In this document: one piece after another, positions 22,697 to 58,149 of the stretch
Numbering within the stretch: position 1 is the first letter of the stretch
Layout: each line of letters begins with the position of its first letter
Assembly: GCA_001823925.1 (NCBI GenBank)
Contig: MHWB01000002.1
Coordinates: 2,376 to 60,869 of the forward strand
Direction of reading: 5' to 3'
DNA from: Candidatus Zambryskibacteria bacterium RIFCSPLOWO2_01_FULL_39_39
GTDB taxonomy: Bacteria; Patescibacteriota; Minisyncoccia; Phycocordibacterales; WO2-35-19
DNA: 58,494 nt
Notes under the pieces: model-generated
What the model saw: only the letters and a program-made list of their open reading frames with translations
Databases searched by the model: none
Told to the model about the DNA's origin: nothing
Position numbers and translations under genes: made by a program

Positions 22697-23659
22697 TTAA
22701 CTCTGCCTGTGAAGTTCTAAATAAATATCTTCCAACGCTTTGACGGCGTCGCCGGCGGCGATGTTGTTTTGATGATAGAGGGTATCAGTACAATCTCCGG
22801 CCGCCCAAATATCTTCTCTACTTGTTCTCTGGGTCTTGTGGTCTATTTTTATATGTTTAAATTCATCCATTTCTAGCAAATCCTCTACAAAACTCGTTGC
22901 TGGGGTATGACCAATCTCTATAAAAATTCCACTAACGGGGATTTCAAGATTATCAACAAAAGGCGCGGTCCTTTGATAGACAATAGATTTTACAAAGTCG
23001 CCACCTTTGATTTCAACTGGTATGGCGTTGGTTAGCGCCTTCATTTTTGGATTGGCTAACACTTTTTCTACAGTGACCGGATCGGCACGAAATTCGCCAC
23101 GGCTCAATAGAGTGACGCTTTTACAATAAGCTAAGAGCTGAGCGGCTGATTCAAAACCGGCATTACCTCCACCTATCACTGCTACATCCTTACCTTCAAA
23201 AAATGGTCCATCGCATGAGGCGCAATAAGTGATACCTTTGCCCTCAAATTCCAAAGCTCCCGGGATATTTAATTTTTTTCTAGAACTGCCGGTGGTTACC
23301 AAAATAGTTTTAGTATCGTAAGTATTTTTGTTTGTAGTTATAGTGAATTTATTTTTTTGGCCGACGTTTTCAGTCGGCCCCCCGACCAAAAGCGTCGGGG
23401 CTACTCTTTCTACTCTCTCCCCCTCTTTTATATCTACAAAATCACTTGCATAAGATTTGACATGTTCCTTTAAGTTTTTGGCCAAATCAATACCAGAAAT
23501 AGCAGGCGTACCTATCCAATTTTGAATTTCGTTTGATTCTATAGATTGGCCACCAAAAGATTCGGCTATTAACAATGTCTTTATCTGCTTCCTCGCCGCA
23601 TATACGCCAGCTGCTGCTCCAGCAGGACCACCACCTATGATTATGAGATCGTATTGCAT
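22697..23659 (-). CDS. trxB: Thioredoxin reductase / AhpF-like FAD-dependent oxidoreductase
   Basis: GGGPAG, YCASCDG, GGGNAG, AAGD motifs. Confidence 0.88.
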   Translation of the reverse strand: MQYDLIIIGGGPAGAAAGVYAARKQIKTLLIAESFGGQSIESNEIQNWIGTPAISGIDLAKNLKEHVKSYASDFVDIKEGERVERVAPTLLVGGPTENVGQKNKFTITTNKNTYDTKTILVTTGSSRKKLNIPGALEFEGKGITYCASCDGPFFEGKDVAVIGGGNAGFESAAQLLAYCKSVTLLSRGEFRADPVTVEKVLANPKMKALTNAIPVEIKGGDFVKSIVYQRTAPFVDNLEIPVSGIFIEIGHTPATSFVEDLLEMDEFKHIKIDHKTQRTSREDIWAAGDCTDTLYHQNNIAAGDAVKALEDIYLELHRQS

Positions 23660-23680
23660 ATTTTTATTGTATCATAAAAA

Positions 23681-23742
23681 GACCTCACCCCAAATACCTT
23701 ACGGTATTTTGCCCCTCTCCTTGTGAAGGAGAGGGGAGAGGG
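23681..23742 (+). repeat. GACCTCACCCC...CCCCTCTCC/GGAGAGGGG repeat, copy upstream of DUF559
   Basis: GACCTCACCCC-AAATACC TTAC GGTATTT-T-GCCCCTCTCCTT GTG AAGGAGAGGGG. Confidence 0.85.
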
Positions 23743-23756
23743 AAAAAGAAAAAAAC

Positions 23757-24107
23757 ATGGAATTGATACATAACAATGAAATACTTAAGGAAAGAAGGAG
23801 AGAATTAAGACAAAACTCTACTAAAACAGAAGAAATACTTTGGTGGTATCTACGTGATAAAAAGTTGGGAGTAAAATTTAAAAGACAACATAGTATTGGA
23901 GGCTATATATTAGATTTTTACTGTCCAGAGAAGAAACTGATCATCGAACTTGATGGGGAAATACATAATACAAAAGAAGCTAAGGAATATGATGCCGTTC
24001 GTGATAAATATTTTAAAGAACTTGGATATAAAGTTTTGAGATTTAAAAATAGGGAATTAGAAAATGATACTGAGAAAGTTTTGGATAGAATAAAAAGTTA
24101 TTTTTAA
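23757..24107 (+). CDS. DUF559 (Vsr-like PD-(D/E)xK) endonuclease
   Basis: RRELRQNST..E..LW..LR, FKRQHSIGGYILDFYC, IELDGEIH, D..RD, G.KVLRF.N. Confidence 0.92.
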   Translation: MELIHNNEILKERRRELRQNSTKTEEILWWYLRDKKLGVKFKRQHSIGGYILDFYCPEKKLIIELDGEIHNTKEAKEYDAVRDKYFKELGYKVLRFKNRELENDTEKVLDRIKSYF

Positions 24108-24162
24108 AAACGAAAACCCGCCGCTTGCAAACGGAGAGTTTCCGGTAATGCAAGCGAGCGGG

Positions 24163-24639
24163 TTAGATTTGCCAGTTGACCACTTCATTGGACACCGCCT
24201 GTTTGAGATCGGCTTGAAGTAGTAGTTCTGGGCGAGCATCAAGAATCGCAGCGAGACGGAAAACGTTGTCGAGATTCCATCCACCAAATCCGATGGCGTC
24301 CTTCATTCCGAGAAGTCTGCCTACAAACGAAGGATTCAATCCCAACTTCCGAGCAAGCTCGTTGATCGAGAATATCCTCTGGCGTGCCATCAAGATGTAG
24401 ATGTTGGACTGGATTTGCTCGACATTCATCTGTACCCAGATCCAAATTAGGCTGTTAGCTTTATAAAAATCGGGATGCATCTTGTAGTTGATTGCACCGA
24501 GCTTGCTGATCTCGACGACAACATCGTACATTTCAGTCCCTACGAAGTCTGCTCCCTGGTCAGCCATCCGTTGCTCTCCCTCACGGTCGAGCGAATACTG
24601 CCGGCGAATATTTTTGTCCGTGCCATAGTATAACTGCAA
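24163..24639 (-). CDS. Hypothetical protein with C-terminal XRE-like HTH
   Basis: SINELARKLGLNPSFVGRLL...LDNVFRLAAIL; AGGAGGTG RBS before a TTG start; higher GC. Confidence 0.65.
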   Translation of the reverse strand: MQLYYGTDKNIRRQYSLDREGEQRMADQGADFVGTEMYDVVVEISKLGAINYKMHPDFYKANSLIWIWVQMNVEQIQSNIYILMARQRIFSINELARKLGLNPSFVGRLLGMKDAIGFGGWNLDNVFRLAAILDARPELLLQADLKQAVSNEVVNWQI

Positions 24640-24697
24640 GGTTCACCTCCTACTTACTATTATATCACATCTATAATAAATTGCAAATTTTTAGTTT

Positions 24698-24755
24698 CCC
24701 CCCTCACCTTCGCAAGGGGAGGGGCAGGCTGCCGTAAGGCAGACGGGGTGAGGTC
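24698..24755 (-). repeat. Inverted copy of the DUF559-associated repeat
   Basis: Minus strand GACCTCACCCC-GTCTGCC TTAC GGCAGCC-T-GCCCCTCCCCTT GCG AAGGTGAGGGG. Confidence 0.85.
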
Positions 24756-24757
24756 TT

Positions 24758-25936
24758 TTACTTTAATTTTGAACGGCGGAGGAACGCTGGGACAGCGCCC
24801 CATTCGTCGTCATCATCTATAATATTTTGTTTTTTTTCTTCTGATTCTTCTGCTACCACCTTGATTTCAGATGTATCTTTTTTTTCTGCCTTTTCGCTAC
24901 GGAATACAGAATTAAATATTCTACCCTTACTTGCTTCCTCTCCTACACCTTTGTCTTCAAAGGTATTCTTTTTCATATAATTTTCGGGAAAACCGGAAGC
25001 GATGACGGTGATTTTTACCTCACCTTTCTTGAGTTTTTCGTCTCTGACTGTTCCAAATATAATTTTGGCATTTGGATCCACTGATTCGGTGATAAATTTG
25101 GCGGCATCATGTATTTCAAACATTGTAAGGTCGTCCCCTCCGGCAATGGAGAAGAGAACCCCTTTGGCACCGTTTATTGAAACTTCTAGAAGGGGAGAGT
25201 TGATTGCCATTTTAGCGGCTTCTTCGGCTCGTTTTTCTCCACTAGCTCTTCCGATACCCATCAAAGCTCCACCAGCACTCTCCATGATAGCTCTGACATC
25301 GGCAAAATCTATATTTATAATGCCCGGCATTGTGATGAGGTCTGATATACCTTCAACCGCTTGTTTTAAAATATCATCACACATCGCAAAAGCGCTTTTG
25401 GCTGACGTTTCTTTGTCAATGGTAGCGAGAAGTCTGTCATTTGGGATAACTATCAGGGCGTCTACTGATTGATGAAGTTCTTCTAAGCCGGCTTCGGCGA
25501 GACGCATCTTTTGTTGACCTTCAAAAGAAAAAGGTTTGGTGACTACGCCAACAGTTAAAGCTCCCAGTTCTCTGGCGGTGCGAGCAACCACAGGGCCTGC
25601 GCCAGTGCCTGTACCTCCTCCGGATCCATAGGCGATAAACACCATATCGGCTCCTTTGATAGCTTCTTGTATTTCTTCTTTGGTTTCCTCCACTGCTCGT
25701 TTACCAAGCTCCGGATTCATACCTGTACCCAAACCTCTAGTTAGATTTTTACCTATGTGTATTTTCTTTTTTGCTTCCGAATGATGTAGATCTTGAGCGT
25801 CTGTGTTTACTGAGATAAATTCTACCCCTTTTACTTTGGAGTTAATCATATGATTAATAGCGTTTTTGCCAGAACCACCAACACCGATAACCTTTATTCT
25901 GGCAAAGATTTCCACTTCTGATTTTATTTGAGGCAT
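24758..25936 (-). CDS. ftsZ: Cell division protein FtsZ
   Basis: GVGGSG, GGGTGTG tubulin signature, NIDFAD, C-terminal VPAFLRR; start placed at MPQIK. Confidence 0.98.
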   Translation of the reverse strand: MPQIKSEVEIFARIKVIGVGGSGKNAINHMINSKVKGVEFISVNTDAQDLHHSEAKKKIHIGKNLTRGLGTGMNPELGKRAVEETKEEIQEAIKGADMVFIAYGSGGGTGTGAGPVVARTARELGALTVGVVTKPFSFEGQQKMRLAEAGLEELHQSVDALIVIPNDRLLATIDKETSAKSAFAMCDDILKQAVEGISDLITMPGIINIDFADVRAIMESAGGALMGIGRASGEKRAEEAAKMAINSPLLEVSINGAKGVLFSIAGGDDLTMFEIHDAAKFITESVDPNAKIIFGTVRDEKLKKGEVKITVIASGFPENYMKKNTFEDKGVGEEASKGRIFNSVFRSEKAEKKDTSEIKVVAEESEEKKQNIIDDDDEWGAVPAFLRRSKLK

Positions 25937-25980
25937 ATGTAACAGGGTATCAAAAGAGGGGTAAAAACACAAACATTGAA

Positions 25981-27153
25981 TTATGGTAGGAATTGTTTCA
26001 GAGTTTTTAACACTTTTTTAAACACGTTTTCACTGTGTTTTTTGAGGCCAAGCCTCTCTTCTTCATCTGGCAAGTTGCTTATAATACAAAGTCCATAAGC
26101 GACAGACCAAGAAGAATCTTTGATTTGAAATTTTCCATTGCTAATATTTAAAGAAGCAATGCGACTAGGTAGACGCAAGTAGCTTCTGGCTAAATCAGGA
26201 ATGGTGCCAATAGAGGAAGATCCGCCAGTTATGATTATGCCTGCCGGTAAAACGCCGGATTTACCAATTTTTTTAAGATGTAATTCAATTAATTCAAAAA
26301 TATCTCCCAATCTGGCAGAGACAATGTCTTCAAGTTTTTTTCTTGAATAGCTGGTAGAAGTCACTCCGCCTAGTTTTATAGACTCTGCTTCCTCCAAGGA
26401 TATTTTCAAACCCAAAGCAATGTCGTTAGTGATGTCGCTACCCCCGATCGGAAAGACCTCGAGAGATATTGGTATATTGTTTTCAAATACAACAATTGAA
26501 ACTGTCTCGGCTCCCATATTGGCAAGTACACAGCCGGCAATTTTTTGGCTTTTTGATAAGGTGACAAAACTGGCGGCAATAGGAGAGGCGACCACATCAA
26601 TGACTTCTACTCCAGTTGCTTCCACAGCTTCTACCAAATCATCTAAATGTGATTCTATACAGCTGACAAAAAGAGCTTTAGTTTCAAGTTTTATTCCTTT
26701 TAAACCAATGACTCTGCCCAAAACATTTTTACCATCTACTTTCCATGATGTTGGGATGGAGTATATAATCTTCCTGTTTTGCATAAGGGCGCTTTGTATA
26801 GACTCCTCGGCCGCCAAAACAGCCTGCTCTGTATCTGCGTCTGTGATCTCTTGGTCAGCTCTAGAGACAATACTAGACCCACCAGAATTAAGACCAGAGA
26901 GACCGACTCCGCCGATAGAAATAAAAGCTTTTTTGATTCTAATACCAGAAGACTTCTCTGCTTGTCTCAAGGCAGAGTCTACACTTTTGGTGACATCTCC
27001 GGTGTTGATTATATACCCGTGTCGCAAACCTTTTGATTCGCTACGGCCGGTGCCCAAGATTGTAGGCAAAGAATTTTCTTCACTTCTCTCGGCGACCACT
27101 ACGCGTACTTCGTAAGTACCTACGTCTATACCGGCTGTAATACGTGAGCTCAT
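25981..27153 (-). CDS. ftsA: Cell division protein FtsA
   Basis: GIDVGT, GGSDITNDI, ITGGSS actin-fold motifs; upstream of ftsZ. Confidence 0.95.
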   Translation of the reverse strand: MSSRITAGIDVGTYEVRVVVAERSEENSLPTILGTGRSESKGLRHGYIINTGDVTKSVDSALRQAEKSSGIRIKKAFISIGGVGLSGLNSGGSSIVSRADQEITDADTEQAVLAAEESIQSALMQNRKIIYSIPTSWKVDGKNVLGRVIGLKGIKLETKALFVSCIESHLDDLVEAVEATGVEVIDVVASPIAASFVTLSKSQKIAGCVLANMGAETVSIVVFENNIPISLEVFPIGGSDITNDIALGLKISLEEAESIKLGGVTSTSYSRKKLEDIVSARLGDIFELIELHLKKIGKSGVLPAGIIITGGSSSIGTIPDLARSYLRLPSRIASLNISNGKFQIKDSSWSVAYGLCIISNLPDEEERLGLKKHSENVFKKVLKTLKQFLP

Positions 27154-27481
27154 ATCTTTCCATTTTATCACCATGTGACAGGCCTTTCAAATGAAGGCTT
27201 CCGTGGATAACTAAAAATAACAAATAATTTTTATAAGTCATGTTAAATTTTGGCGCTTTTATTTTGGCAACTTCTGGACAAATAAAAATTTCTCCCACCT
27301 GCCCCGAGTTTTTTATTGAAGGGTTGGACAAATCGAAAGATAAAATATCTGTTGCTTCTTTTTTATTTCTATACCTGGTATTTAATAATTTAATTTCTTT
27401 TTTATCTATAAAACAAACAGAAAGCTCATATCGCTTTCCTAAAATATCATTCTTTATTTTTTCAATCTCCGATTTTTTCAA
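27080..27481 (-). CDS. ybeY: rRNA maturation RNase YbeY
   Basis: LN..YR.K...TDILSF and HGSLHLKGLSH motifs; 3' end overlaps the ftsA start. Confidence 0.9.
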   Translation of the reverse strand: MKKSEIEKIKNDILGKRYELSVCFIDKKEIKLLNTRYRNKKEATDILSFDLSNPSIKNSGQVGEIFICPEVAKIKAPKFNMTYKNYLLFLVIHGSLHLKGLSHGDKMERYELTYYSRYRRRYLRSTRSGRREK

Positions 27482-27506
27482 TCTTTTTTACCAGGCCATC
27501 TCTCAA

Positions 27507-27743
27507 TTAGTCCAACGTCCCTGGCATTTTGCCCATTTTGATGAGATCCCTTATTCGAGCCCGTTCACCCAATTTTTTCAAAGTCTTTTTCTTTTTGACG
27601 TATTCAGAAAGCTTTCTCACACTGTATCTTCTGCCCCGAAGGCGCGCCAAAATACCAGAACCCTGCACTCTTTTAGTAAATTTCCTTATTAAACCAAGAT
27701 TGTTATCGTTATCGTTTTTGGTTATTTCTACATTAATAGCCAT
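27507..27743 (-). CDS. rpsU: 30S ribosomal protein bS21-like
   Basis: Short basic protein VEI.K...N...LIRKFTKRVQ.SGIL...R.RRY. Confidence 0.7.
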   Translation of the reverse strand: MAINVEITKNDNDNNLGLIRKFTKRVQGSGILARLRGRRYSVRKLSEYVKKKKTLKKLGERARIRDLIKMGKMPGTLD

Positions 27744-27782
27744 GCTAAATATCCTATCACACCCTCTTATTTTACGCAAAAT

Positions 27783-27867
27783 GACCCCACCCCATCCGTC
27801 TTACGACGTCTTTCCCCTCACCTTGCCAAGGTAAGGGGGGCATACCGAAAGGTATGCGGGGTGGGGT
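27783..27867. repeat. Double-ended copy of the DUF559-associated repeat
   Basis: GACCCCACCCC..CGTC TTAC GACG..CCCCTCACCTT GCC AAGGTAAGGGG..GCATACC GAAA GGTATGC GGGGTGGGGT. Confidence 0.8.
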
Positions 27868-27868
27868 G

Positions 27869-28993
27869 TTAAACCAGTTCTTTTACTTTTGTGGCGAGAT
27901 TTGTGATGAGGCAGGTCTCTTGGGCGCGAGTGATAGTATTGCGAATAACGACGGAGTTTTCCAAGGCTTCTTTTTGGCCGATTAAAATAATATATGGCGC
28001 ATCTGAAATCTCGGCTGTGCTCATCTGGCCACCTAATTTATCTTTGGCGATAGAGTGAATAACATTTGCTCCGGCCTTATAAAGCTCTTCCAGTATAAGA
28101 AAGCTTTTTAATTTAGCTTCTGGACCAAACTGGATCAAATAAAATTGTGGCTTAACCACTTTAACCTTTATTTTTTTCAAATTCTTCTTGAGTTTTGCAT
28201 AAATATTTAGGGTAGTTGCGGGCAGATCTTTTTTACAGCCTATTTTTTTGGCCAATCTGTTAAAGCGGAAGCCATGAGCCAATTCTTCCCCATTACTTTT
28301 TATAGAAAATATGGTTTCGGATCCTATATTTAAATCTCCAATTAAATTGTTATTTATTTGATAAGCAATATTCATTACTTCTAAAAATTCAATCACTTCT
28401 TTGAAATGCAACCGACTTGATTCGGATAAAAAATCTATCGGTTTGGGACATTCTGCTTGAAAACTTTTACACTCCTCCCTTTTTTCATCAAAGATGGCAG
28501 ATATATCTTTTTTGATAGCCTGTCTTAAATCAGCCGAAAATAAATTGAAATTTTTCCTCACAAAAATTGTAAGTTTCTTCTGAAATTCCCCCATTGATTC
28601 TTTGTCTCCGATAGAATTTATCTCTACCTCCAGATTTTTATAGCCCAACCCATTTAGTATGGAAATACCCGTTTGAATAGAAAGACATTCACAAACGCTT
28701 TTGGAAGAACCTAGAGAAATAATATTTGAGTCAAGTCTGGAAGATTTATGAGACCTCTCGCAATAAAACATGCTCGGCTGTGGTTTTGACATCATTTTTT
28801 CTTCAAAATACATACGCACTAAAGCCGCCTTTTCTGCCGGTTGTAGTGTTTGGTCAAGATCTTTGGTGTGTTCAAAATCTTGTTTTTCTACGGTTGGGGA
28901 AATAATAGGCTGAAAACCATAAAACTTTGCAATTTTACCAGCACTGTTTATTTCTTTAAGATTCCGATTTGGAATTGGTTTGTGGTCAGTCAT
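27869..28993 (-). CDS. Degenerate histidyl-tRNA synthetase-like protein with HGTP anticodon-binding domain
   Basis: YGF..I..P.VE start, EINSIGD, P.P.DFL...S..HF.EV, C-terminal IIIGQKE..VVIR; class II motif 2/3 and RGLDYY are not recognisable. Confidence 0.6.
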   Translation of the reverse strand: MTDHKPIPNRNLKEINSAGKIAKFYGFQPIISPTVEKQDFEHTKDLDQTLQPAEKAALVRMYFEEKMMSKPQPSMFYCERSHKSSRLDSNIISLGSSKSVCECLSIQTGISILNGLGYKNLEVEINSIGDKESMGEFQKKLTIFVRKNFNLFSADLRQAIKKDISAIFDEKREECKSFQAECPKPIDFLSESSRLHFKEVIEFLEVMNIAYQINNNLIGDLNIGSETIFSIKSNGEELAHGFRFNRLAKKIGCKKDLPATTLNIYAKLKKNLKKIKVKVVKPQFYLIQFGPEAKLKSFLILEELYKAGANVIHSIAKDKLGGQMSTAEISDAPYIILIGQKEALENSVVIRNTITRAQETCLITNLATKVKELV

Positions 28994-29031
28994 GATTAAA
29001 TTTTAAGATTTAAAGAAAAAAGATTGAAAGA

Positions 29032-29598: not shown

Positions 29599-29643
29599 GA
29601 TTTAAGGCATTATATTACATATTAAGATTAATTCAAAATTTTC

Positions 29644-30270
29644 ATGTTTTTTATCGTAGGATTGGGTAATCCGGGAGAGGAATATATAAACACTCGACAC
29701 AACACCGGTCGAGAGGCTGTATTGAAATTATGTAAAAATTTGGATTTTGCAGACTTTGAAAACAACAATAAATTCAAATCTTTAATATCAAAAGGGAAAA
29801 TTAAAAAAGAATTAGTAACACTTATTTTGCCGGAAACATTTATGAACAAATCCGGCCAAGCTATTTCTTATTTTGTTAAGCCAAAACTAAAGACTGCGAA
29901 GAAAGGTTTAGAAAATTTAATTGTAGTGCATGATGATTTAGATTTACCCTTGGGCACCTTAAAGATTTCTTACAACAAAGGCACTGGTGGACATAGGGGA
30001 TTGGACTCAGTGGCCAAAGCTGTCAAAACTTTAGAATTTGTTAGAGTCAGGATTGGTATTTCTCCATCAACAGCCAAAGGTAGAGCCAAAAAACCAAACG
30101 AAGGCCTGCCTGCGCAGGCAGGCGAACAAAAAGTCTTGGATTTTATTTTGGGTAAATTTAAACCAGCAGAAATGGAAATCCTAAAAAAAACTTTCAAAAA
30201 ATCAAGCGAAGCTATCCAAACGCTCATCCTAGACGGTCGCGACAGAGCAATGAATAGATTTAATCAGTAG
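29644..30270 (+). CDS. pth: Peptidyl-tRNA hydrolase
   Basis: GLGNPG..Y..TRHN.G, P.TFMNKSG, HDDLD, GGH.GL. Confidence 0.96.
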   Translation: MFFIVGLGNPGEEYINTRHNTGREAVLKLCKNLDFADFENNNKFKSLISKGKIKKELVTLILPETFMNKSGQAISYFVKPKLKTAKKGLENLIVVHDDLDLPLGTLKISYNKGTGGHRGLDSVAKAVKTLEFVRVRIGISPSTAKGRAKKPNEGLPAQAGEQKVLDFILGKFKPAEMEILKKTFKKSSEAIQTLILDGRDRAMNRFNQ

Positions 30271-31334: not shown

Positions 31335-32465
31335 TTATTTTGTTTCTACGAAACTTAGAGCCATCTTTTGTTCTTTAGGGTCAAAGACGTTGATTTTGAA
31401 ATTGTAAGTTTTGCCGAGCTCTAATTTTTCGTGAAGCTTTTCTTCGGTGCCAAATTCAGAGACGTGCACCAGTCCAGCGACACCCTCTTCCACAGAAGCT
31501 AGGGCACCATGTTTGTTAAACTTGATAACTACACCACTCACTATATCGTCTTTTTTGTATTTCTTGGAAGCTTCAATCCAAGGGTTGTCTCTCAAGGCTT
31601 TAATGGAGAGAGAAATTTTGCCATCTTTTACCTCTATGACCTTTACTTTTATTTTATCTCCAACCTTGGCAAACTTTCTAGGATCATCCACCAACCCCCA
31701 ATCGATTTCAGATATATGAACTAAGCCCTCCAAACCTTCCTCTATTTTAACAAAAATTCCAAAATCAACGATGCCAGTCACTTCACCCTCCAATTCATCT
31801 CCTAAGTTGTATTTGTCTATTATTTTCTCCTTCTCCCCACTATCAGGATCTTTTTCGGAGAAAATAAGTTTACCTTCTTTGGCATTAACGGCGATGATGG
31901 CTACCGATATTTTTTGACCAACTAGTTTACGCAATTCTTCCAATATTTTATCTTTGTCTCCATCGGAAATTCTAGGATAATGCTCAGTTTTTAATTGAGA
32001 AGCCGGCAAAAACCCAGTGATGCCTTGCCAGACCAACATCAAACCTCCTTTGTTAGCTTCTTTAATAGGGATTTCAAAAACTTTTTTGTCTCTAATGGCT
32101 TCCTCGGCATCACTCCAAATCAGAGCTTGCTTGGCCTCTTTTAGTGAGATCTCTATATAACCCTCTTTGTTGTCTCTGCCTACTATTTTACCGGTAATCT
32201 TATCTCCAATATTTATCTTTTTTATCAAATCACGAGCGTTTATGTGTTCTCTCCCAAAAATAATACCAGTACCCCAAGGTGGTAAATCTACGAAAATAGA
32301 ATTTTTGGCAATCGATATGACTACACCATCTACAATAGAGTCTTTTTCTGGCGGCAATACAGAGTTGTCCAAAAATTTGGACATTCTGTTTTCCACGCCC
32401 GCATCGCCTTGCGAAGCATTGCGGGTAGGTTTAACTTCTTCCTTATTAATTGTTTGTTTTGACAT
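31335..32465 (-). CDS. rpsA: 30S ribosomal protein S1 (four S1 domains)
   Basis: Repeated S1 motifs: GFLPASQL, FGIFV..GLVHISEI, GLVHVSE. Confidence 0.92.
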   Translation of the reverse strand: MSKQTINKEEVKPTRNASQGDAGVENRMSKFLDNSVLPPEKDSIVDGVVISIAKNSIFVDLPPWGTGIIFGREHINARDLIKKINIGDKITGKIVGRDNKEGYIEISLKEAKQALIWSDAEEAIRDKKVFEIPIKEANKGGLMLVWQGITGFLPASQLKTEHYPRISDGDKDKILEELRKLVGQKISVAIIAVNAKEGKLIFSEKDPDSGEKEKIIDKYNLGDELEGEVTGIVDFGIFVKIEEGLEGLVHISEIDWGLVDDPRKFAKVGDKIKVKVIEVKDGKISLSIKALRDNPWIEASKKYKKDDIVSGVVIKFNKHGALASVEEGVAGLVHVSEFGTEEKLHEKLELGKTYNFKINVFDPKEQKMALSFVETK

Positions 32466-33050: not shown

Positions 33051-33085
33051 ACAAAAACCACCCAATTTTATTGGGTGGTTTTTGT
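33051..33085. terminator. Bidirectional intrinsic terminator
   Basis: ACAAAAACCACCCAAT-TTT-ATTGGGTGGTTTTTGT between convergent genes. Confidence 0.8.
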
Positions 33086-33741
33086 TATCCAAAATCAAAT
33101 ATGTCAAAGGCGCCCTTTGACACTATCCTTTTGTATAATTTTGTGTTTTCGTTTATAAAGTTTTTTGTGCCTCCAAAGATTTCAGTCAGGAATTGTTTAT
33201 GGAGAATTGGATTTTTTTTATCAATAATAAAATCATTATAACTACTCCACTTGTATTCTTCTGGTTTGTTTACCAAGGAATCTTTCACCGGATTCATATG
33301 TATATAAGATGATATAAGCATTAATTGAGGATTTGTTTCTATGCGGACTGATTTGAATCTGTCCTGAAAAACATACCCCACCCTTTTATGTTTTAGATTT
33401 ATGTATTTGGAAAAACTAGTAGATACCCTTAATATAAGTTTTGAAACAGACTCATCGCCACATTGCTCAATTAAGAGATGAAAATGATTTGGCATTAAAC
33501 AAAAGGCGTGCAATTTAAAACTATTTGGCTCCAAACTACCAATCCTTATTCTTGATTTGGGGGATTTAGTTATTTCACATTCGTTTAGATCCCCTTTCTC
33601 AATTCCAAGACCCAACCCCAATCTAAAAAGAAAAGCTCTATAATCTTGTTCGTCTCGAAATATGACCTCTTTATTATTACCTCGGTTATAAAGGTGATAG
33701 ATAGAACCTTTTGCAAAATTTTTATAATCCCTATTTCCCAT
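33085..33741 (-). mobile_element. REP-associated tyrosine transposase (RAYT, Y1/HUH family)
   Basis: YHLYNRGNNK..IF, FCLMPNHFHLL (HUH), G.VFQDRFKS, YIHMNPV, Y.WSSY; flanked by matching palindromes. Confidence 0.9.
33097..33124. repeat. REP palindrome at the 3' end of the RAYT gene
   Basis: TGTCAAAGG-CGC-CCTTTGACA hairpin. Confidence 0.88.
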
Positions 33742-33760: not shown

Positions 33761-33793
33761 TAAATATGTCAAAGGGCGCCTTTGACATATTTA
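33761..33793. repeat. REP palindrome upstream of the RAYT gene (inverted relative to 33097)
   Basis: Perfect 15-bp arms TAAATATGTCAAAGG-GCG-CCTTTGACATATTTA. Confidence 0.9.
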
Positions 33794-47050: not shown

Positions 47051-47097
47051 ACCTCTCCCAAACCCCTCCCTTTTGGGGAGGGGTGAAGGGGTGGGGT
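47051..47097. repeat. Double-ended copy of the DUF559-associated repeat
   Basis: ACCTCTCCCAAA-CCCCTCCC..GGGAGGGG-TGAA-GGGGTGGGGT. Confidence 0.75.
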
Positions 47098-47105
47098 GTA
47101 TCTTT

Positions 47106-48068
47106 ATGGATATATCTCGTTATAAACAAAACCCCAAGACTCAGTATTTGGCAGAAAATTTGGAGAGGCTTTTAAAAGAAGAGGCTGATGTTTTGGTGTT
47201 GGTAGAAGAAGGACTAACTTCTTCAGCAGACGAGATGAAAGAGTTGGCAGAGGGGGATTTGAAAAATATAGCAGCCCAAAAAGAAATTTTACTCGGACAG
47301 ATGGATAAAATATTGGAAGAAGAAATCCGTAAAGAAAAAGAGGAGGAGGAATTTCCCAATGAAATAGTCTTGGAAGTCAGGGCCGGTGTCGGTGGCGAAG
47401 AGGCCGCTCTATTTGCCGAGGAACTAGCCAATATGTATCGCAGATATGCTGATTCAAGAGGTTGGTCTGTTTCAATATTAGATGAATCAGAGTCGCCACT
47501 CGGAGGGTACAAGGAAGCTTCTTTTGAAATACGAGGCACTGATGTTTATAAAGAACTTAGACATGAGACAGGTATCCATCGTGTACAAAGAGTACCCAAG
47601 ACTGAAAAAATGGGTCGGGTCCACACATCTACTGCTTCCGTGGCTATATTGCCAATTCGCAAAAAAACAAAATTTGAAATTAACCCAGCTGATTTAGAAG
47701 TTGAATTTTCTCGTGCCGGTGGCAAAGGTGGCCAAAACGTAAACAAGGTGGAAACAGCTGTAAGACTTACTCACAAACCAACGGGCTTAGTGGTACGTTC
47801 CACTGCCGAGAGAAGTCAAAATGCTAACAAAGAAAATGCTTTGATGATCCTTTCAGCCAAACTAGAAGAAAAGCAACGAGAAGAAGAGGATAGTAAATAT
47901 GCGGCGGATCGTAAAGATCAGGTGGGAGTAGTGGATAGGTCAGAGAAAATTAGAACTTATAATATCCTTCAGGATAGGGTTACAGATCATAGATTAAATA
48001 AAAACTGGCATGGTATAGAAAATATAATGAAAGGTCAGATAAGCGGTATTATTGACGCTTGGAAGTAA
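47106..48068 (+). CDS. prfA: Peptide chain release factor 1
   Basis: HRVQRVPKT (PxT), [12 protein letters not shown]; follows rpmE. Confidence 0.95.
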
Positions 48069-49358: not shown

Positions 49359-49367
49359 CCTAAAAAT

Positions 49368-51389: not shown

Positions 51390-51460
51390 AGAAGTTCCTT
51401 ATCAAATGAGTTTTTGTACAACTTGCCTGATTCAGTAATATCGGATTGGGCTTTTTCTTT

Positions 51461-51730: not shown

Positions 51731-51793
51731 TTTTTTATTATATCAAAGTTTTATCACTATAAGCAAGTAGATTTATTTATAATAAAAACATAA

Positions 51794-53044
51794 TTATCTC
51801 CACTTTGTTTCTTTTACAAAAATGACATTATAAATAGCTTTGGTCATCCAAATCGGAGCCAGAGCAGTGTAAAACATTAAAAACAAAATACTATCTAAAC
51901 CAAACTTATACTTTTCTTCTGCTAAACCTCTGGAAGTTACGATAATAAAGAGCGTCCCCAAGACCGCAATTATAGAGATGAAGACCACTATATCAGTATT
52001 GACGTAGAAAAAATCAAAATTAAATCCCGACCAAGATAGGCCAATAGTGGATACTTCTTTTATTTTGAGGATTGAGATATTTATCCAATTTATTACAACT
52101 GTCCCAAAAAAATACATAGTGGAAAAAACAGAAAAGCCTGCAGCAGGCAAGACCACCATCCCCAAATTGCCATACTGAGGTCTAAAAAACATACCCCTAT
52201 AATCAATAGCATTTTTAAGGAAACCGTGGACCCAGCGTAAACGTTGTTTATAAAGAGCTTTGAAAGTAGTGGGAGCAATAGTATAAACAAAAGCATTGGA
52301 GACATTGCTTATTTTCATAAAGTTTTTTTGCATACGCATAGCAATTTCCATATCTTCAGTATTGTGAGCATGTCTGTAGCCTCCTATTTTTTGGAAAACA
52401 GATCTGCGGAAAATAGAAAATGGCCCCGGAGTTATATAGACGGCATTTAAATTGGAGAATACTTTTCGCAAAAAAATACCAAAAATGTATTCCGCTTTTT
52501 GGATAAGGCCCAATATCCCTTTTGGTTCAAATATTTTTATAGAAGGAGTAACTGCCATAATTTCGCTATCATCAAATTCTGTCGCGATCCTCCTTAAAGC
52601 TTCTGGGTGGACAAAAGAGTCAGCGTCCAAGCAGCCAACCAAATCAGAGTCTACAAATTCTAGCGCATAATTTAAAGCTGTATATTTGCCACCATTTTCT
52701 TTTCTTAAAAGTTTAATTTGTTTGTTATGGGCAAACACTTGCAAAACACGCCAAGTATTGTCCGTACTTCCGTCATCTACAATAAAAATAGAGAGTTTGT
52801 CTTTGGGATAGTTAAGCTTCAAAATCGAGAAAATCGTCTTAAGGATAGTGGTTTCTTCGTTCCAAACGGGCACTATCATAGATACACTTGGGAATTCATC
52901 CTCACTTTTTTTCTTTCCTTGACCCGCAAAAATCTTAGTTAGAGAGATTGCTTTAAATTCAAAGTAAGTAATCAGGAAAAATACCTCAACATAAAGAGCT
53001 AAGAAAAGTAGAATGTAAGTTATGGTATCTGATGCAAGATGCAT
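51794..53044 (-). CDS. Processive GT2 glycosyltransferase (PgaC/IcaA/cellulose-synthase-like)
   Basis: VP.WNEE, DDGS.D, DADS, TED, QRLRW motifs plus TM helices. Confidence 0.92.
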   Translation of the reverse strand: MHLASDTITYILLFLALYVEVFFLITYFEFKAISLTKIFAGQGKKKSEDEFPSVSMIVPVWNEETTILKTIFSILKLNYPKDKLSIFIVDDGSTDNTWRVLQVFAHNKQIKLLRKENGGKYTALNYALEFVDSDLVGCLDADSFVHPEALRRIATEFDDSEIMAVTPSIKIFEPKGILGLIQKAEYIFGIFLRKVFSNLNAVYITPGPFSIFRRSVFQKIGGYRHAHNTEDMEIAMRMQKNFMKISNVSNAFVYTIAPTTFKALYKQRLRWVHGFLKNAIDYRGMFFRPQYGNLGMVVLPAAGFSVFSTMYFFGTVVINWINISILKIKEVSTIGLSWSGFNFDFFYVNTDIVVFISIIAVLGTLFIIVTSRGLAEEKYKFGLDSILFLMFYTALAPIWMTKAIYNVIFVKETKWR

Positions 53045-53062
53045 ATCTGTAAATATAACACA

Positions 53063-54205
53063 TCAACGGATAGTTGCCAAAAAAATCCGTAGAGTCTCAT
53101 CTTCAAGTTTTTTATGCATAGTGTCAACTTCAGAACTTAACAAGGTCCGATTGAGAGATCTATAAATAATCCGAAAAGCGAAACTTACTTTATTTTTACC
53201 AAATTTTTGTTCGTCTTCGTATCTATCTAAGAGTTTAACTTCTTCAACCAGATCTTCCCCTATGACTTCTCGGATTAAATCAAAATAATTGTTTGGCACA
53301 AAGTTTTTATCTACTATAAAAGAAATGTCACGGACTATGGGCGGGTATTTACTAACTTCTTTATATTTTTGGCCAAGATTAAGCTGTTTTTTAATCCTCT
53401 CATCTTCTGACCAAAGTAGGCGGATATCAGGTAAAGACATGCTTACAATCGCCAATCTCTCCAAACCAAATCCAAACGCCCAGCCAGTATATTTTTTTGA
53501 GTCAACTCCGAGCTTTTCTAAAACACTACCCTTGACCACACCACAACCAACCACCTCAACCCATTTGTCATCAATTAGAACTTCCATTTCCAAAGATGGA
53601 TCCGTATATGGAAAAGTATCTTTGTTTAAGCGGTACTTAATTTGAGGTCCGAATACAGCAGCAGCAATATTTCCAAGAGCTTCTTCCAAATCTTTTTGAC
53701 CGATTGTCTTCAAAGTTTTTGGCGCCAGAAACCAACCATCTATTTGATGAAAAACATTCATATGATTGCGGTCTATTTCATCTTTGCGGTAAACTTTGCC
53801 AAAACTAAAACAGCCAACTGGTTCATTTTGAGCTATACGTTTTTTTATTTCTTCGTGCATCAAATAGTAATACCAACAAACAGTGGTGTGAGTCCGCAAA
53901 ATATTTTTATCATCTACATAATATGTGTCTGACTTGCTCCTAGCGGGATGATCTGCTGGGAAATCAAACAAATCAAAACTTATATTGGCTGGGACGATTT
54001 CAGGAGTTTTGATAATATCTAAATCTTTAAAATAGGGATAACATATTATACGATTTACAATTTCTGCAATAGGACTGCCCTGAGTGCGGGAAAGGTCTGG
54101 CATAGCCAAGTATCGCTTCATACGCAAAGCATCAGCATCCTTTCGATTGTTCAAATCTTTGAGCTTTTTCTCTTCTTCGTCTGTTGGAATAATGTATTCT
54201 TTCAT
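53063..54205 (-). CDS. pheS: Monomeric (mitochondrial-type) phenylalanyl-tRNA synthetase: PheS catalytic domain plus FDX-ACB
   Basis: HPARSKSDTYY, LRTHT, YRKDEID..H..VFHQ, FPYTDPS.E, GWAFGFGLERLA; fused SKYPPIVRDISF...S.AFRIIYRS..RTL anticodon domain. Confidence 0.9.
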   Translation of the reverse strand: MKEYIIPTDEEEKKLKDLNNRKDADALRMKRYLAMPDLSRTQGSPIAEIVNRIICYPYFKDLDIIKTPEIVPANISFDLFDFPADHPARSKSDTYYVDDKNILRTHTTVCWYYYLMHEEIKKRIAQNEPVGCFSFGKVYRKDEIDRNHMNVFHQIDGWFLAPKTLKTIGQKDLEEALGNIAAAVFGPQIKYRLNKDTFPYTDPSLEMEVLIDDKWVEVVGCGVVKGSVLEKLGVDSKKYTGWAFGFGLERLAIVSMSLPDIRLLWSEDERIKKQLNLGQKYKEVSKYPPIVRDISFIVDKNFVPNNYFDLIREVIGEDLVEEVKLLDRYEDEQKFGKNKVSFAFRIIYRSLNRTLLSSEVDTMHKKLEDETLRIFLATIR

Positions 54206-54253
54206 GTGATTTAGTGTAGCAAAATAGATTAGAATTTGCTATAATATGATGTA

Positions 54254-56371
54254 ATGATTAAGGAGGAGAAAAATAAAAAAAGCAAAGATTCAAGTAAATA
54301 TAGCGCCGATTCTATCACTGTTTTGGAAGGGCTAGAGCCAGTGCGTCGCAGGCCGGGTATGTATATCGGCACTACTGGGCCGGACGGCTTACATCATCTA
54401 ATTTGGGAGATTTTTGATAACTCAAGGGACGAGGCCATGGGAGGCTTTGCTAATGATATAGAAGTTGCTTTTCTTCCCAATAATCAAGTACGGGTCGTCG
54501 ACAATGGTCGAGGCATCCCAGTTGATGTCCACAAACAAACAAAAGTATCAGCTTTGGAGACTATTTTGACCACCCTACACGCGGGTGGAAAATTTGGGGG
54601 AGAAGGTTATAAAATCTCTGGCGGTCTGCATGGAGTAGGGGCTTCCGTAGTTAACGCACTTTCGATATTTATGCGAGCAGAAGTACACCGAGACGGGGGA
54701 GTCTACATGCAAGAATATTCTAAAGGTAAAAAGAAAACGGCAGTTAAAAAAATAGGTTCTTCCAAGCTCTCTGGCACTGTAATCACTTTTGAGCCGGATC
54801 CAGAAATATTTGCAACTAATGACAACGAAATAAGTTTTGACTTTGACCGAGTGGTCCATCATATGCGTCAACAGGCTTATTTGGTAAAAGGTCTCAAAAT
54901 ATCTGTCTTAGATTTGCGAGAAATAAATATATCATCTGGCGGAAAAATAAAAGACTCTGAAACTTTTTATTTACGAGACTTGGATATAGAAGCACCTTCT
55001 ATGTCATTTTATTTTGACGGTGGACTCATGTCTCTCATCAGATTTTATAACCACACCCAAAAACCAATTCATAAAAATGTTTTTTATGTTGAAAAATTAA
55101 ATGAAAATTTTGAGGGAGCAGAAGTAGCTCTGCAATATGTAGACGATATTTCGGCCCGCATTATGCCTTTTGCCAATAATATATATAACTCTGAAGGAGG
55201 AACCCATATCACTGGATTTAAGACAGCTTTGACTAGAACTTTAAATAATTATGCCAAGAAAAACAATCTTACCAAAAATGGAGATGATGCTTTTACGGGA
55301 GAAGATGTGTTAGAGGGACTCACTGCCGTTATTTCAGTTAAATTGAGAGAAGTGCAATTTGAAGGTCAAACTAAGGCTAAGTTGGGTAGTGTAGAAGCCC
55401 GTGGGATGGTTGAGGGTATTTTTGCTGAAGCCTTTGATGCCTTTTTGGAAGAAAACCCAGATGATGCTAGGGCAATAATTAATAAAGTCACCTTGGCCCT
55501 ACGCGCTCGCAAAGCGGCTAAAGCGGCTAAAGATTCAATTTTAAGAAAGGGGGCACTGGAAGGTATGACTTTGCCGGGGAAACTTGCCGATTGCCAGAGT
55601 AAATCTGCAGAGGAGTCAGAGCTCTTTATCGTAGAGGGAGATTCGGCCGGAGGCACCGCCAAGACGGGTAGAGATAGGCGTACTCAAGCGATATTACCAT
55701 TGAAAGGAAAAATATTAAACATAGAAAGAGCCCGACTTGACCGTATGCTTGGTTCAGAGCAAATTAAAAATTTGGTAGTCGCTTTGGGTACTGCCATAGG
55801 GGACACATTTGATATTTCCAAACTTCGTTATCATAAAGTGATTATAGCAACCGATGCCGATGTTGACGGCGCCCACATCCGCACTCTTATACTTACTCTA
55901 CTCTATAGATACTTCCGTCCACTTATAGATGGGGGATTTATATACATTGCCCAACCGCCTCTTTATAAAATTAAAAAGGGTAAAGAAATATTTTATGCAT
56001 ACTCTGACGACGAGAAAGCTAAAATTTTAGGAAAAGAAGCAGAGGTTGAAATAGTAGAAACTGAAAGTGGAGAGATCGAAAATTCTGATTCAGAAAATGA
56101 GGAAGAAAATGAAAATAATAAAGCCTCCTCCGCTAAAGCTACGGCGGGCCGAAGTAAAATTTCAGTACAACGCTACAAAGGTTTGGGAGAAATGAATGCC
56201 GAAGAATTATGGGAAACCACCATGGACCCCAAAAAACGTATCTTGAAACAAATAAATGTTGACGAAGCCGGCGAAGCTGACCAAATATTTGATGTTCTTA
56301 TGGGCACTGACGTCCCATCTCGCAAATCTTTCATCCAATCCAACGCCAAACTGGCAACTATTGACATTTAA
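54254..56371 (+). CDS. gyrB: DNA gyrase subunit B
   Basis: LEGLEPVRRRPGMYIG, GGLHGVG, EGDSAGG, PLKGK, DADVDG, QRYKGLGEM. Confidence 0.96.
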   Translation: MIKEEKNKKSKDSSKYSADSITVLEGLEPVRRRPGMYIGTTGPDGLHHLIWEIFDNSRDEAMGGFANDIEVAFLPNNQVRVVDNGRGIPVDVHKQTKVSALETILTTLHAGGKFGGEGYKISGGLHGVGASVVNALSIFMRAEVHRDGGVYMQEYSKGKKKTAVKKIGSSKLSGTVITFEPDPEIFATNDNEISFDFDRVVHHMRQQAYLVKGLKISVLDLREINISSGGKIKDSETFYLRDLDIEAPSMSFYFDGGLMSLIRFYNHTQKPIHKNVFYVEKLNENFEGAEVALQYVDDISARIMPFANNIYNSEGGTHITGFKTALTRTLNNYAKKNNLTKNGDDAFTGEDVLEGLTAVISVKLREVQFEGQTKAKLGSVEARGMVEGIFAEAFDAFLEENPDDARAIINKVTLALRARKAAKAAKDSILRKGALEGMTLPGKLADCQSKSAEESELFIVEGDSAGGTAKTGRDRRTQAILPLKGKILNIERARLDRMLGSEQIKNLVVALGTAIGDTFDISKLRYHKVIIATDADVDGAHIRTLILTLLYRYFRPLIDGGFIYIAQPPLYKIKKGKEIFYAYSDDEKAKILGKEAEVEIVETESGEIENSDSENEEENENNKASSAKATAGRSKISVQRYKGLGEMNAEELWETTMDPKKRILKQINVDEAGEADQIFDVLMGTDVPSRKSFIQSNAKLATIDI

Positions 56372-58149
56372 TTCTTTTCTTTAATTTCTTTTTGGAGAAG
56401 TTCTAGGAATTTTGAGGCGGACATTGAACCAAGTTTTTCGCCTCCGTCAACTGACGGATTGCCACGAGCTTCCACGGTCACTTCTTTTGATTCTACTTCT
56501 TTATCACCCAAGACAATCCAATAAGGGATCTTTTCATTCTTTGCCTGACGCACCTTTTTACCCAAGTTTTCATCTGCCAAATCCACTTCGGCCCTCACAC
56601 CATTTTCTTTTAACAAATCATAAATTTCCTGCGCATAAGCATTGTGCGATTCGCGTACTGGTATGACTTTAACCTGCACTGGTGAGAGCCAGAGAGGAAA
56701 ATTGCCAGCATAGTGTTCAATAAGAATTCCCATAAATCTTTCAAAAGAACCCAGTATGGCTACATGTAAGACTACAACACGATGTTTTTTACCGTCTTCA
56801 CCAGTGTAATTCATATCAAAATTTTCTGGTTGATTAAAGTCTAATTGGATCGTTGTCAGTTGCCATTCGCGACCGATTGAATCCTTAACTTTTATATCTA
56901 TTTTAGGTCCATAAAATGCAGCCTCACCCTCTTCAACACTGAATGGGACACCCCAGTTTGTGACCTCTTCAAGCAATATCGCTTCAGCTTTTTGCCAAAC
57001 ACTATCATCTCCAAAATATTTTCCTTTATTTTTTGGATCACGCACGGAAATTTCAACTTTGTAATCATTAAATCCAAACAAACCATAGACTTTTTGCATT
57101 AGTCCAAGAATCATCTTTATTTCTGATTGGATCTGATCTTGTTTTATAAAATGATGAGTATCGTCCTGACACAAACTCTTGACTCGCAAAAGACCGGACA
57201 ATTCACCACTTTTTTCATTTCTGTAGACGACAGTATTTTCGGCTAAACGCAAAGGTAAGTCGCGATAACTATGTGGCTCAGCATTGTAAATTTCAAAATG
57301 ATGAGGACAATTCATTGCTTTCATTACAAATTCTTCGCCATTTTCGTCTTTCATTGTCGGCATCATAGCGCCATATTTACCCAAGTGACCACTTTTTATA
57401 TAAAGTTCCTTTTTGGCAATATGAGGAATCGTAACAAATGAATACCCGAGTTTTTCTTTTTCAGAACGAATAAAGTTTTCCAACTCGGTGCGAATTATAT
57501 TTCCTTTTGGCAAGTACATGGGCAACCCCTTACCAACTAAATCTGAAATAGTAAAAAGTCCTAGTTCTTTGCCTAATTTTTTATGATCTCTTTTTTCAGC
57601 TTCTTCTCTTTGTATCAAATATTCGTCTAACTTTTCTTTTGATTCAAAAGCTAAACCATAAATACGAGTCAACATTTTGTTTTTTTCGTCTCCCCTCCAA
57701 TAAGCGCCCGCAATACGATCAAGTTTAAATGATTCCGGACTGATTTCTTTGGAAGGATCTGCTACGTGCCCACCTCGACAAAGATCAGTAAAATCACCGC
57801 TTTTATAAAAAGTTATTTTGCCTTCAAATTCATTTATTAGTTCAATCTTATATTCGTTGTTCTTCCAATACTCCCTCGCTTCATCTGCCGACACCTCCCC
57901 ACCCTCAAAACTTTTCCAAGAAGGCAAAATCTCTTTCATTTTTTCTTCAATTTTTTCTAAATCTTTGTCTGAAATAGGAGAAGAAAATTCAAAGTCATAA
58001 TAAAAACCATTATCTATAGCCGGTCCGATAGTCGCTTTAGCATCTGGATAAAACTCCTTGACCGCCGCCGCAAGCAGATGTGCTAGTGAATGTCTAACTG
58101 ATTCAATATTACTTGTCTCGAGCTTGTCGAGAGATTTTTCTTTATTCAT
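56368..58149 (-). CDS. thrS: Threonine--tRNA ligase
   Basis: RHSLAH, DLCRGGH, RDHKKLG, MNCP.H, AAFYGPKID, GSFERF. Confidence 0.97.
   Translation of the reverse strand: MNKEKSLDKLETSNIESVRHSLAHLLAAAVKEFYPDAKATIGPAIDNGFYYDFEFSSPISDKDLEKIEEKMKEILPSWKSFEGGEVSADEAREYWKNNEYKIELINEFEGKITFYKSGDFTDLCRGGHVADPSKEISPESFKLDRIAGAYWRGDEKNKMLTRIYGLAFESKEKLDEYLIQREEAEKRDHKKLGKELGLFTISDLVGKGLPMYLPKGNIIRTELENFIRSEKEKLGYSFVTIPHIAKKELYIKSGHLGKYGAMMPTMKDENGEEFVMKAMNCPHHFEIYNAEPHSYRDLPLRLAENTVVYRNEKSGELSGLLRVKSLCQDDTHHFIKQDQIQSEIKMILGLMQKVYGLFGFNDYKVEISVRDPKNKGKYFGDDSVWQKAEAILLEEVTNWGVPFSVEEGEAAFYGPKIDIKVKDSIGREWQLTTIQLDFNQPENFDMNYTGEDGKKHRVVVLHVAILGSFERFMGILIEHYAGNFPLWLSPVQVKVIPVRESHNAYAQEIYDLLKENGVRAEVDLADENLGKKVRQAKNEKIPYWIVLGDKEVESKEVTVEARGNPSVDGGEKLGSMSASKFLELLQKEIKEKN

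Follow-up and report, generated by a model that had tools for sequence, protein, structure and literature searches.

How do short GC-rich palindromes come to lie, in frame, inside the housekeeping genes of a small genome? The question is raised by a stretch of 58,494 nucleotides from Candidatus Zambryskibacteria bacterium RIFCSPLOWO2_01_FULL_39_39 (bases 2376–60869 of contig C2; hereafter the window), for which a preliminary description had listed eight such sites together with the peptides they encode. The genome of this ultra-small bacterium from groundwater measures 0.80 Mb in 13 contigs, has 39% G+C, is rated 98.9% complete and is about 90% coding, and its size and relatives fit a placement in the Patescibacteria, or candidate phyla radiation (CPR). 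All eight stretches were recovered in frame, where they had been placed and with the quoted peptides, and Pfam agrees with the names given to the housekeeping genes (TrxB-type Pyr_redox_2, YbeY, Pept_tRNA_hydro, S1 three times, GyrB, ThrRS, and PCRF/RF-1). The explanation that we consider probable is that very short, GC-rich hairpin repeats of several families ("nano-REPs", 16–45 bp; REP, repetitive extragenic palindrome) are copied into new chromosomal places, protein-coding genes included. We infer the mobility of these micro-palindromes from the comparison of sequences, and the translation of the inserts from their intact frames.

Hairpin families and their sites in genes

Perfect GC-rich hairpins (stem of at least 7, loop of at most 12) occur 156 times in the genome, versus 27, 34, and 29 times in three Markov controls. 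By a crude greedy call of open reading frames (ORFs), 83 of them lie inside ORFs, 67 between ORFs, and 6 at an edge. The 580 ORFs of at least 150 aa hold 66 hairpins, compared with 15–25 in five codon-shuffled controls. Long single-stem palindromes number only 11 in a scan of the genome, none of them related to the micro-families, and a scan for GC islands was too unspecific.

Most of the eight listed elements belong to multi-copy families, whose copy numbers we compared with 20 third-order Markov simulations. Family B, CCTGCCTGCGCAGGCAGG, has 5 copies in the genome at up to two mismatches (0.05 simulated), family C, CCGAC-N7-GTCGG, has 7 (0.2 simulated), family D, TCCGTCA-NN-TGACGGA, has 4 at up to one mismatch (0 simulated), and family E, CGCTAAAGCTACGGCGGG, has 6 at up to two mismatches (0.05 simulated). 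A REP first noted near position 18745, TGTCAAAGGGCGCCTTTGACA, has 9 copies at up to two mismatches (0 simulated). Copies of this genome inside ORFs make up 5/5 for B, 5/7 for C, and 5/6 for E. Hosts outside the window are PNPase, a RecG-like helicase, and a class IV aminotransferase for B, CysRS for E, enolase for D, and ribosomal protein S16 for C; comparison with orthologues identifies insertions in the aminotransferase, PNPase, the helicase, and S16. Family C forms a tandem hairpin pair in both trxB and S16, where it is a clean gain of 15 codons, and it is always read as PTxxxVG (9/9 sites). The earlier proposal that several families of micro-elements have spread into coding DNA is borne out by these dispersed families and their lineage-specific in-frame insertions. 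It does not extend to the inserts of ybeY and prfA, for which a second copy was not found in the genome, and the element of rpsA is single-copy as well. Across 29 genes of the window and 8 syntenic genomes we found 28 lineage-restricted inserts of at least three residues, the DNA of which has a mean G+C of 0.54, versus 0.377 in random gene segments.

We folded each of the eight stretches as single-stranded DNA, compared it with 200 shuffles, and aligned the proteins with orthologues taken from 15–16 species of the genus and from further families in the order. The stretches had been presented as GC-rich hairpins, prfA more weakly, which holds for trxB, pth, rpsA, thrS, and the REP, but not for ybeY, gyrB, and prfA. 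Clean indels relative to orthologues are found in pth, trxB, ybeY, rpsA, and prfA, whereas gyrB and thrS carry their elements in loops of variable length.

The trxB element (23359..23400; gene 22697–23659, minus strand) consists of two adjacent 21-nt CCGAC-N7-GTCGG hairpins, read PTLLVG-GPTENVG, instead of the nested hairpin initially described (z −4.7, 0/200 shuffles as good). It adds 13 codons, in a stretch that reads PTLLVGGPTENVG, and 17 of 21 orthologues lack any insert at the site. Among the relatives compared (coded G001, G002, and so on; this genome is G000), G001 shares the hairpin pair but with other loops, the site in G005 is taken by a different family with C-rich and G-rich arms, and G013 keeps a decayed remnant. 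The pairs of G000 and G001 differ at six positions, all outside the CCGAC/GTCGG stems: in the loops, between the hairpins, or in the outer pair, which changes on both sides (GGCC..GGCC versus AGCC..GGCT).

In pth (29644–30270, plus), the element is a perfect 20-bp palindrome at 30104..30123 with a family B 18-mer as its core (30105–30122), read GLPAQAG (z −2.55, 4/200 shuffles as good). This insert of 7 codons is absent from 15/15 other genus members covering the site; overall, 26 of the 28 other sequences covering it are empty and two carry a different insert of 7–8 residues. AlphaFold2 models made from the orthologue alignments (mean predicted local distance difference test, pLDDT, of 85 for TrxB and 92 for Pth) place both inserts in loops, as had been suggested for such elements. 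The TrxB insert (residues 88–100) lies between strands 83–88 and 105–109, with pLDDT <50 at 94–100, and the Pth insert (153–160) is coil just before helix 157–169, with pLDDT ~84.

The gene of an S1 protein, rpsA (31335–32465, minus), has near its 5' end a 36-nt insertion (32394..32429) with an imperfect 28-nt palindrome, read PTRNASQGDAGV (z −2.6, 2/200 shuffles as good). The insertion is clean and missing from 21/21 orthologues covering the site. Two other genomes contain related 28-mers (up to six mismatches), and where rpsA of this genome has ASQGDAG, G022 has an ASQGDAS hairpin. The thrS element (56443..56458; gene 56368–58149, minus, near the 3' end) is a 16-bp palindrome of family D, TCCGTCAACTGACGGA, read NPSVDG (z −4.4, 2/200 shuffles as good), in a loop whose length differs by 3–6 residues among relatives.

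The remaining genes of the list carry stretches that are not hairpins at present. In ybeY (27080–27481, minus), the insert at 27302..27325 comprises 7 codons, read NPSIKNSG (z +0.27); it is missing from 21 of 22 orthologues, and in G010 its place is taken by a different GC-rich insert of 7 codons, LPDGKAG. The gyrB stretch (56123..56149; gene 54254–56371, plus) is a family E copy whose CGCTAAAGCTACGGCGGG core is read SAKATAG, in an acidic linker, and folds weakly (z +0.8). Several species have decayed related SA(K/E)A(T/S) stretches in the linker, and the family E element of gyrB recurs in G005, inside pth, and in G006, inside another gene. The matches to trxB and gyrB in G012 (L044, L130) contain several in-frame stops or come in pieces, which may reflect broken genes or errors of assembly.

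In prfA (47073–48068, plus), the 6 codons at 47211..47228 read GLTSSA (z +1.0). The insert is common to G007 and G009, which carry NEP(A/T)SSAD there, and because the DNA of G007 still forms a CTGCC-TCATC-GGCAG hairpin, the copy in the window is better read as a decayed CTGCC-loop-GGCAG hairpin than as kin of the intergenic palindrome at 18413. The latter had been proposed from a resemblance that amounts to about 16/20 bases by eye, which we take as chance, and BLAST gives no link between the two.

The last of the eight stretches is the REP at 18750..18770, TGTCAAAGGCGCCCTTTGACA, which a hypothetical ORF (18452–18826) without any Pfam match reads as VSKAPFD in its 3' part; the REP folds well (z −5.4, 0/200 shuffles as good). 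Upstream of this ORF are intergenic copies (18351..18396) of a C-like hairpin, CTCCGACAAAATCGTCGGAG, and a D-like one, TCTGTCATCTGACGGA. A perfect AT-rich palindrome of 34 bp, TAAGCTAAGTTCATCAGCTGATGAACTTAGCTTA, lies just upstream of the ORF as well (18409–18442); this palindrome, of which the genome has no second copy, may be an operator.

Two features recur across these comparisons. The same loop is used by different families in different species at trxB, ybeY, two pth sites, and gyrB, and decayed copies are seen in prfA, in the gyrB linker, at the second pth site, and in trxB of G013.

The 18-bp palindrome of family B

Family B is the one for which the inserted unit can be delimited. In five cases there is a net insertion of 18 nt. 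Taking the 18-mer out of gyrB of G002 (GA[18]A, where [18] stands for the 18-mer) gives back the REI of the orthologues, and taking it out of the class IV aminotransferase (AA[18]T) gives back KNK; the junction in gyrB of G010 is ATA[18]AAA. The copies in PNPase and the helicase amount to a net gain of 6 codons with ambiguous junctions. At the level of these alignments, what was inserted is shown to be the bare 18-bp palindrome, and the clear junctions have no target-site duplication. The GyrB loop was hit in G002 and G010 at different residues and in different frames, and the alignments point to independent events. G002 also carries B at a second, different site in pth. In this genome, 4/4 of the B copies checked are absent from the 3–15 closest relatives examined.

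The palindrome is found in 13 of the 39 genomes of the taxonomic family (this genome and 8 of the 16 other species of the genus among them), at 1–9 sites each, and the reversed control pattern gave no match in the same 39 genomes. Beyond the family, the exact 18-mer was found at at least 125 loci of other species, 80 of them with flanks, distributed over many lineages of the CPR as well as Bacteroidota, Gammaproteobacteria, Terriglobia, and further groups; these counts and this spread across phyla are lower bounds. One Sphingobacteriales genome (Bacteroidota) of 2.8 Mb has 70 copies. The B sites with flanks in that genome are probably intergenic, because 5/5 lie in frames of at most 86 aa. At three further places it has B doublets 76–120 bp apart, two of which are composites of ~130 bp with two B hairpins flanking a C-rich/G-rich hairpin. 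The window has a similar composite at 24698–24750, made of a hairpin with C-rich and G-rich arms (type A) and a B-like CTGCC-GTAA-GGCAG hairpin. In contigs of metagenome runs X12 and X13, another organism of the same samples shows a B palindrome with CCGAC-type hairpins 39 nt further on, so that these two families are neighbours elsewhere in the community too. In the 70-copy genome, we considered a segment of 2.3 kb between two inverted B-containing ends as a B-ended transposon and rejected it; it holds ordinary genes, namely DUF3822, an RsmD-like methylase, and a cytidylyltransferase.

The reading frame of B is strongly biased. The 41 distinct sites in the 13 genomes, which include orthologous sites of sister species and hence stand for fewer than 41 independent events, are read as LPAQAG (35), CLRRQ (4), or PACAG (2), and in ORFs of at least 100 aa LPAQAG accounts for 34/39 (binomial p 5e-12). 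The 80 loci from many phyla split 49/19/12 between the frames, LPAQAG first; in frames of at least 150 aa the split is 38/11/3 (LPAQAG 38/52), the other 28 loci being in shorter frames. The 18-mer has no stop in any of its three frames. No target consensus is apparent in the 6-nt flanks of the 41 sites, and many copies are flanked by runs of A/T. We rejected a target preference for RR|Y(AA) as the cause of the bias, given that it would put 42–49% of copies at most in that phase. Since neither stops nor such a preference explains it, the bias towards LPAQAG is read as a filter on the peptide.

The 18-mer also lies inside a tRNA-Gln-like 5' fragment, GCCGGRTCR-[18-mer]-TCTAATGGTAGGA, at about positions 451–468 of four loci from other CPR genomes (L252, L263, L264, and L268), and three of the four have an intact tRNA-Gln(ttg) gene nearby. 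These may be insertions into copies of a tRNA gene or the remnant of an attachment site.

Candidate movers and competing explanations

In the explanation that we prefer, insertion would be roughly random, and selection would keep the copies that add whole codons without a stop, encode an innocuous peptide rich in Gly, Ala, Pro, Ser, or Gln, and fall in a permissive surface loop. Selection after random insertion would thus produce both the bias towards one frame and the repeated use of a few loops by different families. Translated copies would then erode to AT-richer, non-palindromic linker codons or stay perfect by some process. For families B–E our best guess is a mechanism that recognises the hairpin as a single strand and makes no duplication, as suggested by the lack of target duplications and by the hairpin nature of the units.

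For the REP, the one AT-richer family, the obvious candidate, judging from gene order, is the Y1 transposase of the window, a member of the IS200-like, REP-associated tyrosine transposase (RAYT) type encoded at 33085..33741 (minus; PF01797, 3.6e-09). The REP of 18750..18770 recurs on both sides of this gene, at 33097–33124 and 33767–33792, in agreement with its first identification as a RAYT REP. The C-terminus of the transposase (…VSKGAFDIFDFG, VSKGAFD) is encoded by its own REP at 33097–33124, and hence the gene ends inside the repeat that it presumably recognises. All four RAYT-like genes of the genome have their own palindrome on both sides.

The other candidate partner is a gene for a DUF559 nuclease (23757–24107, plus), which has a family A hairpin upstream (23712–23736). 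In contigs from metagenome runs X12 and X8, position 23736 is followed, after 12 other letters, by 24739; they come from a variant, of this or a related organism, that lacks the segment of ~1 kb with the DUF559 gene and the next ORF, and its left break is at the end of the C-rich/G-rich hairpin at 23712–23736. Elsewhere in this genome, DUF559 domains lie inside long frames of 968 and 542 aa (C9:68609–71512 and C13:58493–60115), both bracketed by CCCTCCCC...GGGGAGGG hairpins, as if they were cassettes inserted in frame in larger genes. DUF559 inside frames of 550–1180 aa is also found in other genomes of the family. In G005, G009, and G032, a DUF559 gene adjoins pth, which is not the case here; this looks like an insertion-polymorphic cassette at a conserved spot.

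Several results weigh against the preferred explanation, and some of them concern these very genes. The preliminary description suggested correlating the families with RAYT and DUF559 genes, and the copy number of the pth family follows neither. Counting any PF01797 match as RAYT, rho is 0.26 (p 0.11) over the 39 genomes and −0.02 within the genus; for DUF559 it is 0.20 and 0.04, respectively. B is present in one genome without a RAYT match (G034) and in another without a DUF559 match. Families B–E match none of the palindromes that flank RAYT genes in this genome, and the hairpins that flank RAYT genes in the 70-copy Bacteroidota genome do not belong to B. The positions of B sites relative to DUF559 and RAYT genes, compared by eye, are not systematic in any way. 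No enzyme is tied to B–E by these comparisons. Contigs from four DNA metagenome runs, in which rare variants are dropped, have no indels at any micro-palindrome, and the sites in trxB, ybeY, and pth are covered by contigs with the same sequence as the window. The E copy in CysRS and the D copy in enolase are a net gain of only 2 codons, with native codons replaced. No family could be detected for the inserts of ybeY and prfA, three of the eight stretches fail to fold, and the sister species among the 41 B sites lower the count of events. Finally, G032, from another genus and with a Pth 61% identical, carries the identical 18-mer at the same pth nucleotide, also as a gain of 7 codons, which random insertion does not predict. 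This copy, the ASQGDAS hairpin of G022, and the unchanged trxB stems favour either target choice or a process by which copies stay perfect.

A bolder version of the same explanation, which we put forward only tentatively, is that CCTGCCTGCGCAGGCAGG is smaller than any other mobile DNA unit seen so far, a naked hairpin that lacks coding capacity, terminal repeats, and target duplication. It would move single-stranded, through a partner enzyme or by the annealing of nuclease-resistant hairpins at replication forks; the 18-mer would cross phyla in groundwater and soil, and in ultra-small genomes with little intergenic space it would survive by being translated in one open frame. If so, the shared pth nucleotide in two genera and the tRNA-Gln-like fragments of other CPR lineages would point to real target choice.

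An alternative that we regard as rather unlikely is that the palindromes settled long ago in a few permissive loops, where conversion from other copies or a sequence-specific enzyme keeps their DNA uniform or rewrites it, and that presence and absence reflect overwriting and loss. It would account for the G032 copy, for trxB stems that stay unchanged between G000 and G001 while the loops vary, for the native codons overwritten in CysRS and enolase, for the different families at one loop in different species, and for the conservation of an exact 18-mer across phyla. It sits poorly with the absence of all four checked B copies from the closest relatives and with the native codons that return on removal in the clear cases. 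The different residues and frames of B in the GyrB loop of two species, and the many clearly decayed copies, also speak for insertion.

We think it improbable that there is no dedicated transposase at all and that nuclease-resistant single strands of hairpins, derived from repeats of the genome or from DNA acquired from neighbours, pair with microhomologies at the replication fork and become incorporated, in the manner of SPDIR, or short-patch double illegitimate recombination. The donors of SPDIR bring flanking donor sequence with them, whereas the bare 18-mer is what the clear junctions here contain, and annealing alone would not keep one exact sequence across phyla. RecJ, which restrains SPDIR, is present in this genome together with DprA. 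The lack of target duplications would nonetheless be expected from such annealing, as would the occurrence of both exact-unit insertions and short overwrites, and no enzyme association was found for B with RAYT or DUF559. The A/T runs next to many B copies could give microhomology, the phyla that share the identical 18-mer co-occur in groundwater and soil, and ComEC and DprA make DNA uptake plausible. With ComEC, DprA, and RecJ all present, the gene content lends no special support to an SPDIR-type process; DprA and RecFOR are named as its suppressors in the abstract of bioRxiv 10.1101/2023.11.22.568220.

A function of the hairpin or its peptide under positive selection, be it a peptide motif (LPAQAG, PTxxxVG) or an RNA or DNA signal (pause, RNase, protein-binding, or uptake site), is very improbable, even if the strong frame bias, stems conserved where loops vary, and an 18-mer conserved across phyla are what it would lead one to expect. 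The elements are patchy among sister species in essential genes, and B has only 1–9 copies per genome in the family. Identical DNA turns up in both of the other frames and, at 28/80 loci, in short-frame, probably intergenic contexts. The inserts are coil in both models, disordered in TrxB (pLDDT <50 at 94–100) and at pLDDT ~84 in Pth, and identical GC-rich codons in a genome of 39% G+C point to copying of DNA rather than convergence of peptides.

That each palindrome was made locally, by template switching (quasi-palindrome correction) or slippage without copying between loci, is barely credible as a general account: although ybeY, prfA, and rpsA have no other copy in the genome and the gyrB linker and thrS loop vary in length anyway, the identical 18-mer at 41 unrelated sites of 13 genomes and at no fewer than 125 loci in other species, the multiple copies of C, D, E, and the REP, and inserted DNA that does not copy its flanks contradict it for B, C, E, and the REP, so that it could stand only for the orphan inserts.

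Relation to known repeats and significance

Copying of hairpin families into genes, as we favour it, has its closest counterpart in the Rickettsia palindromic elements (RPEs), as the preliminary description had proposed. In the passages of PMC10969869 used here, RPEs are palindromic families found in frame in unrelated housekeeping genes, translated, at sites compatible with the fold, and with several families per reduced genome. The unit is ~150 bp and the hosts are Alphaproteobacteria (Ogata et al. 2000, 2002, as summarised in those passages of PMC10969869). The analogy holds for multi-copy palindromes in frame in protein-coding genes that, from the intact frames, appear to be translated. 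It fails for size, the units here being 16–45 bp (6–15 codons), 3–10 times smaller, and for the lineage, here Patescibacteria, so that by description the two are distinct. Unlike RPEs, moreover, one 18-mer is here shared with other phyla, and the other frames are open, so that the frame bias is not due to stops.

Classical REPs are short GC-containing hairpins, present in many copies and extragenic. The TGTCAAAGGGCGCCTTTGACA family, which flanks the RAYT gene at 33085–33741, is a true RAYT REP, and the tandem C pairs of trxB and S16 and the B doublets 76–120 bp apart in a Bacteroidota genome resemble REPs and REPINs. In contrast, B–E fail the RAYT-flanking test, B copy number is not linked to RAYT, and the copies of B, C, and E in this genome are mostly in ORFs. 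MITEs, miniature transposable elements that have terminal inverted repeats and a target-site duplication, differ in that the whole unit here is one palindrome, with no target duplication at clear junctions. Uptake sequences (uptake signal sequences, USS, and DNA uptake sequences, DUS) number hundreds to thousands per genome and arise by substitution, whereas B has 1–9 copies per genome in 13/39 genomes and its copies are insertions. The small dispersed repeats of cyanobacteria, which Elhai et al. reportedly described in 2008, and the mobile GC clusters of yeast mitochondria are closer in form: both are hairpins of ~20–50 bp that spread in AT-richer genomes and at times lie in coding sequence. 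They belong to other lineages and have other sequences than the elements described here.

Family A hairpins, CCCCTCTCC...GGAGAGGGG, and the composite at 24698–24750 (…GGGGAGGGG…GGGGTG) look like BoxC and other G+C-rich intrastrand-triplex repeats; B–E lack the third arm of such repeats, a G/T-rich or C-rich run that can form a triplex beside the C-rich and G-rich arms, and B-type hairpins are joined to A-type hairpins in composites both in the window and in the Bacteroidota genome. The passages of Holder et al. 2015 (PMC4666352) used here treat intergenic sites of BoxC and triplex repeats; the words "in-frame", "intragenic", and "open reading" are absent from the text of that paper, and the solo 18-mer inside genes is not covered. 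In the literature outside subscription journals and supplements, we found no paper on in-frame palindromes in Patescibacteria, nor one with the 18-mer or LPAQAG. In-frame micro-palindromes are apparently new for this group.

If the elements are mobile, as we think probable, they show how selfish or semi-selfish DNA persists in a genome with almost no non-coding space, namely by being translated. They would steadily supply essential proteins, among them GyrB, TrxB, Pth, PNPase, and aminoacyl-tRNA synthetases, with insertions in loops. The inserts mark loops that tolerate insertion, and they complicate both alignment-based phylogeny and the annotation of CPR proteins. The 18-mer, with its exact unit, its insertion without duplication, its frame filter, and its presence across phyla, offers a countable system in which to study a hairpin-inserting mechanism and selection on random peptide insertions.

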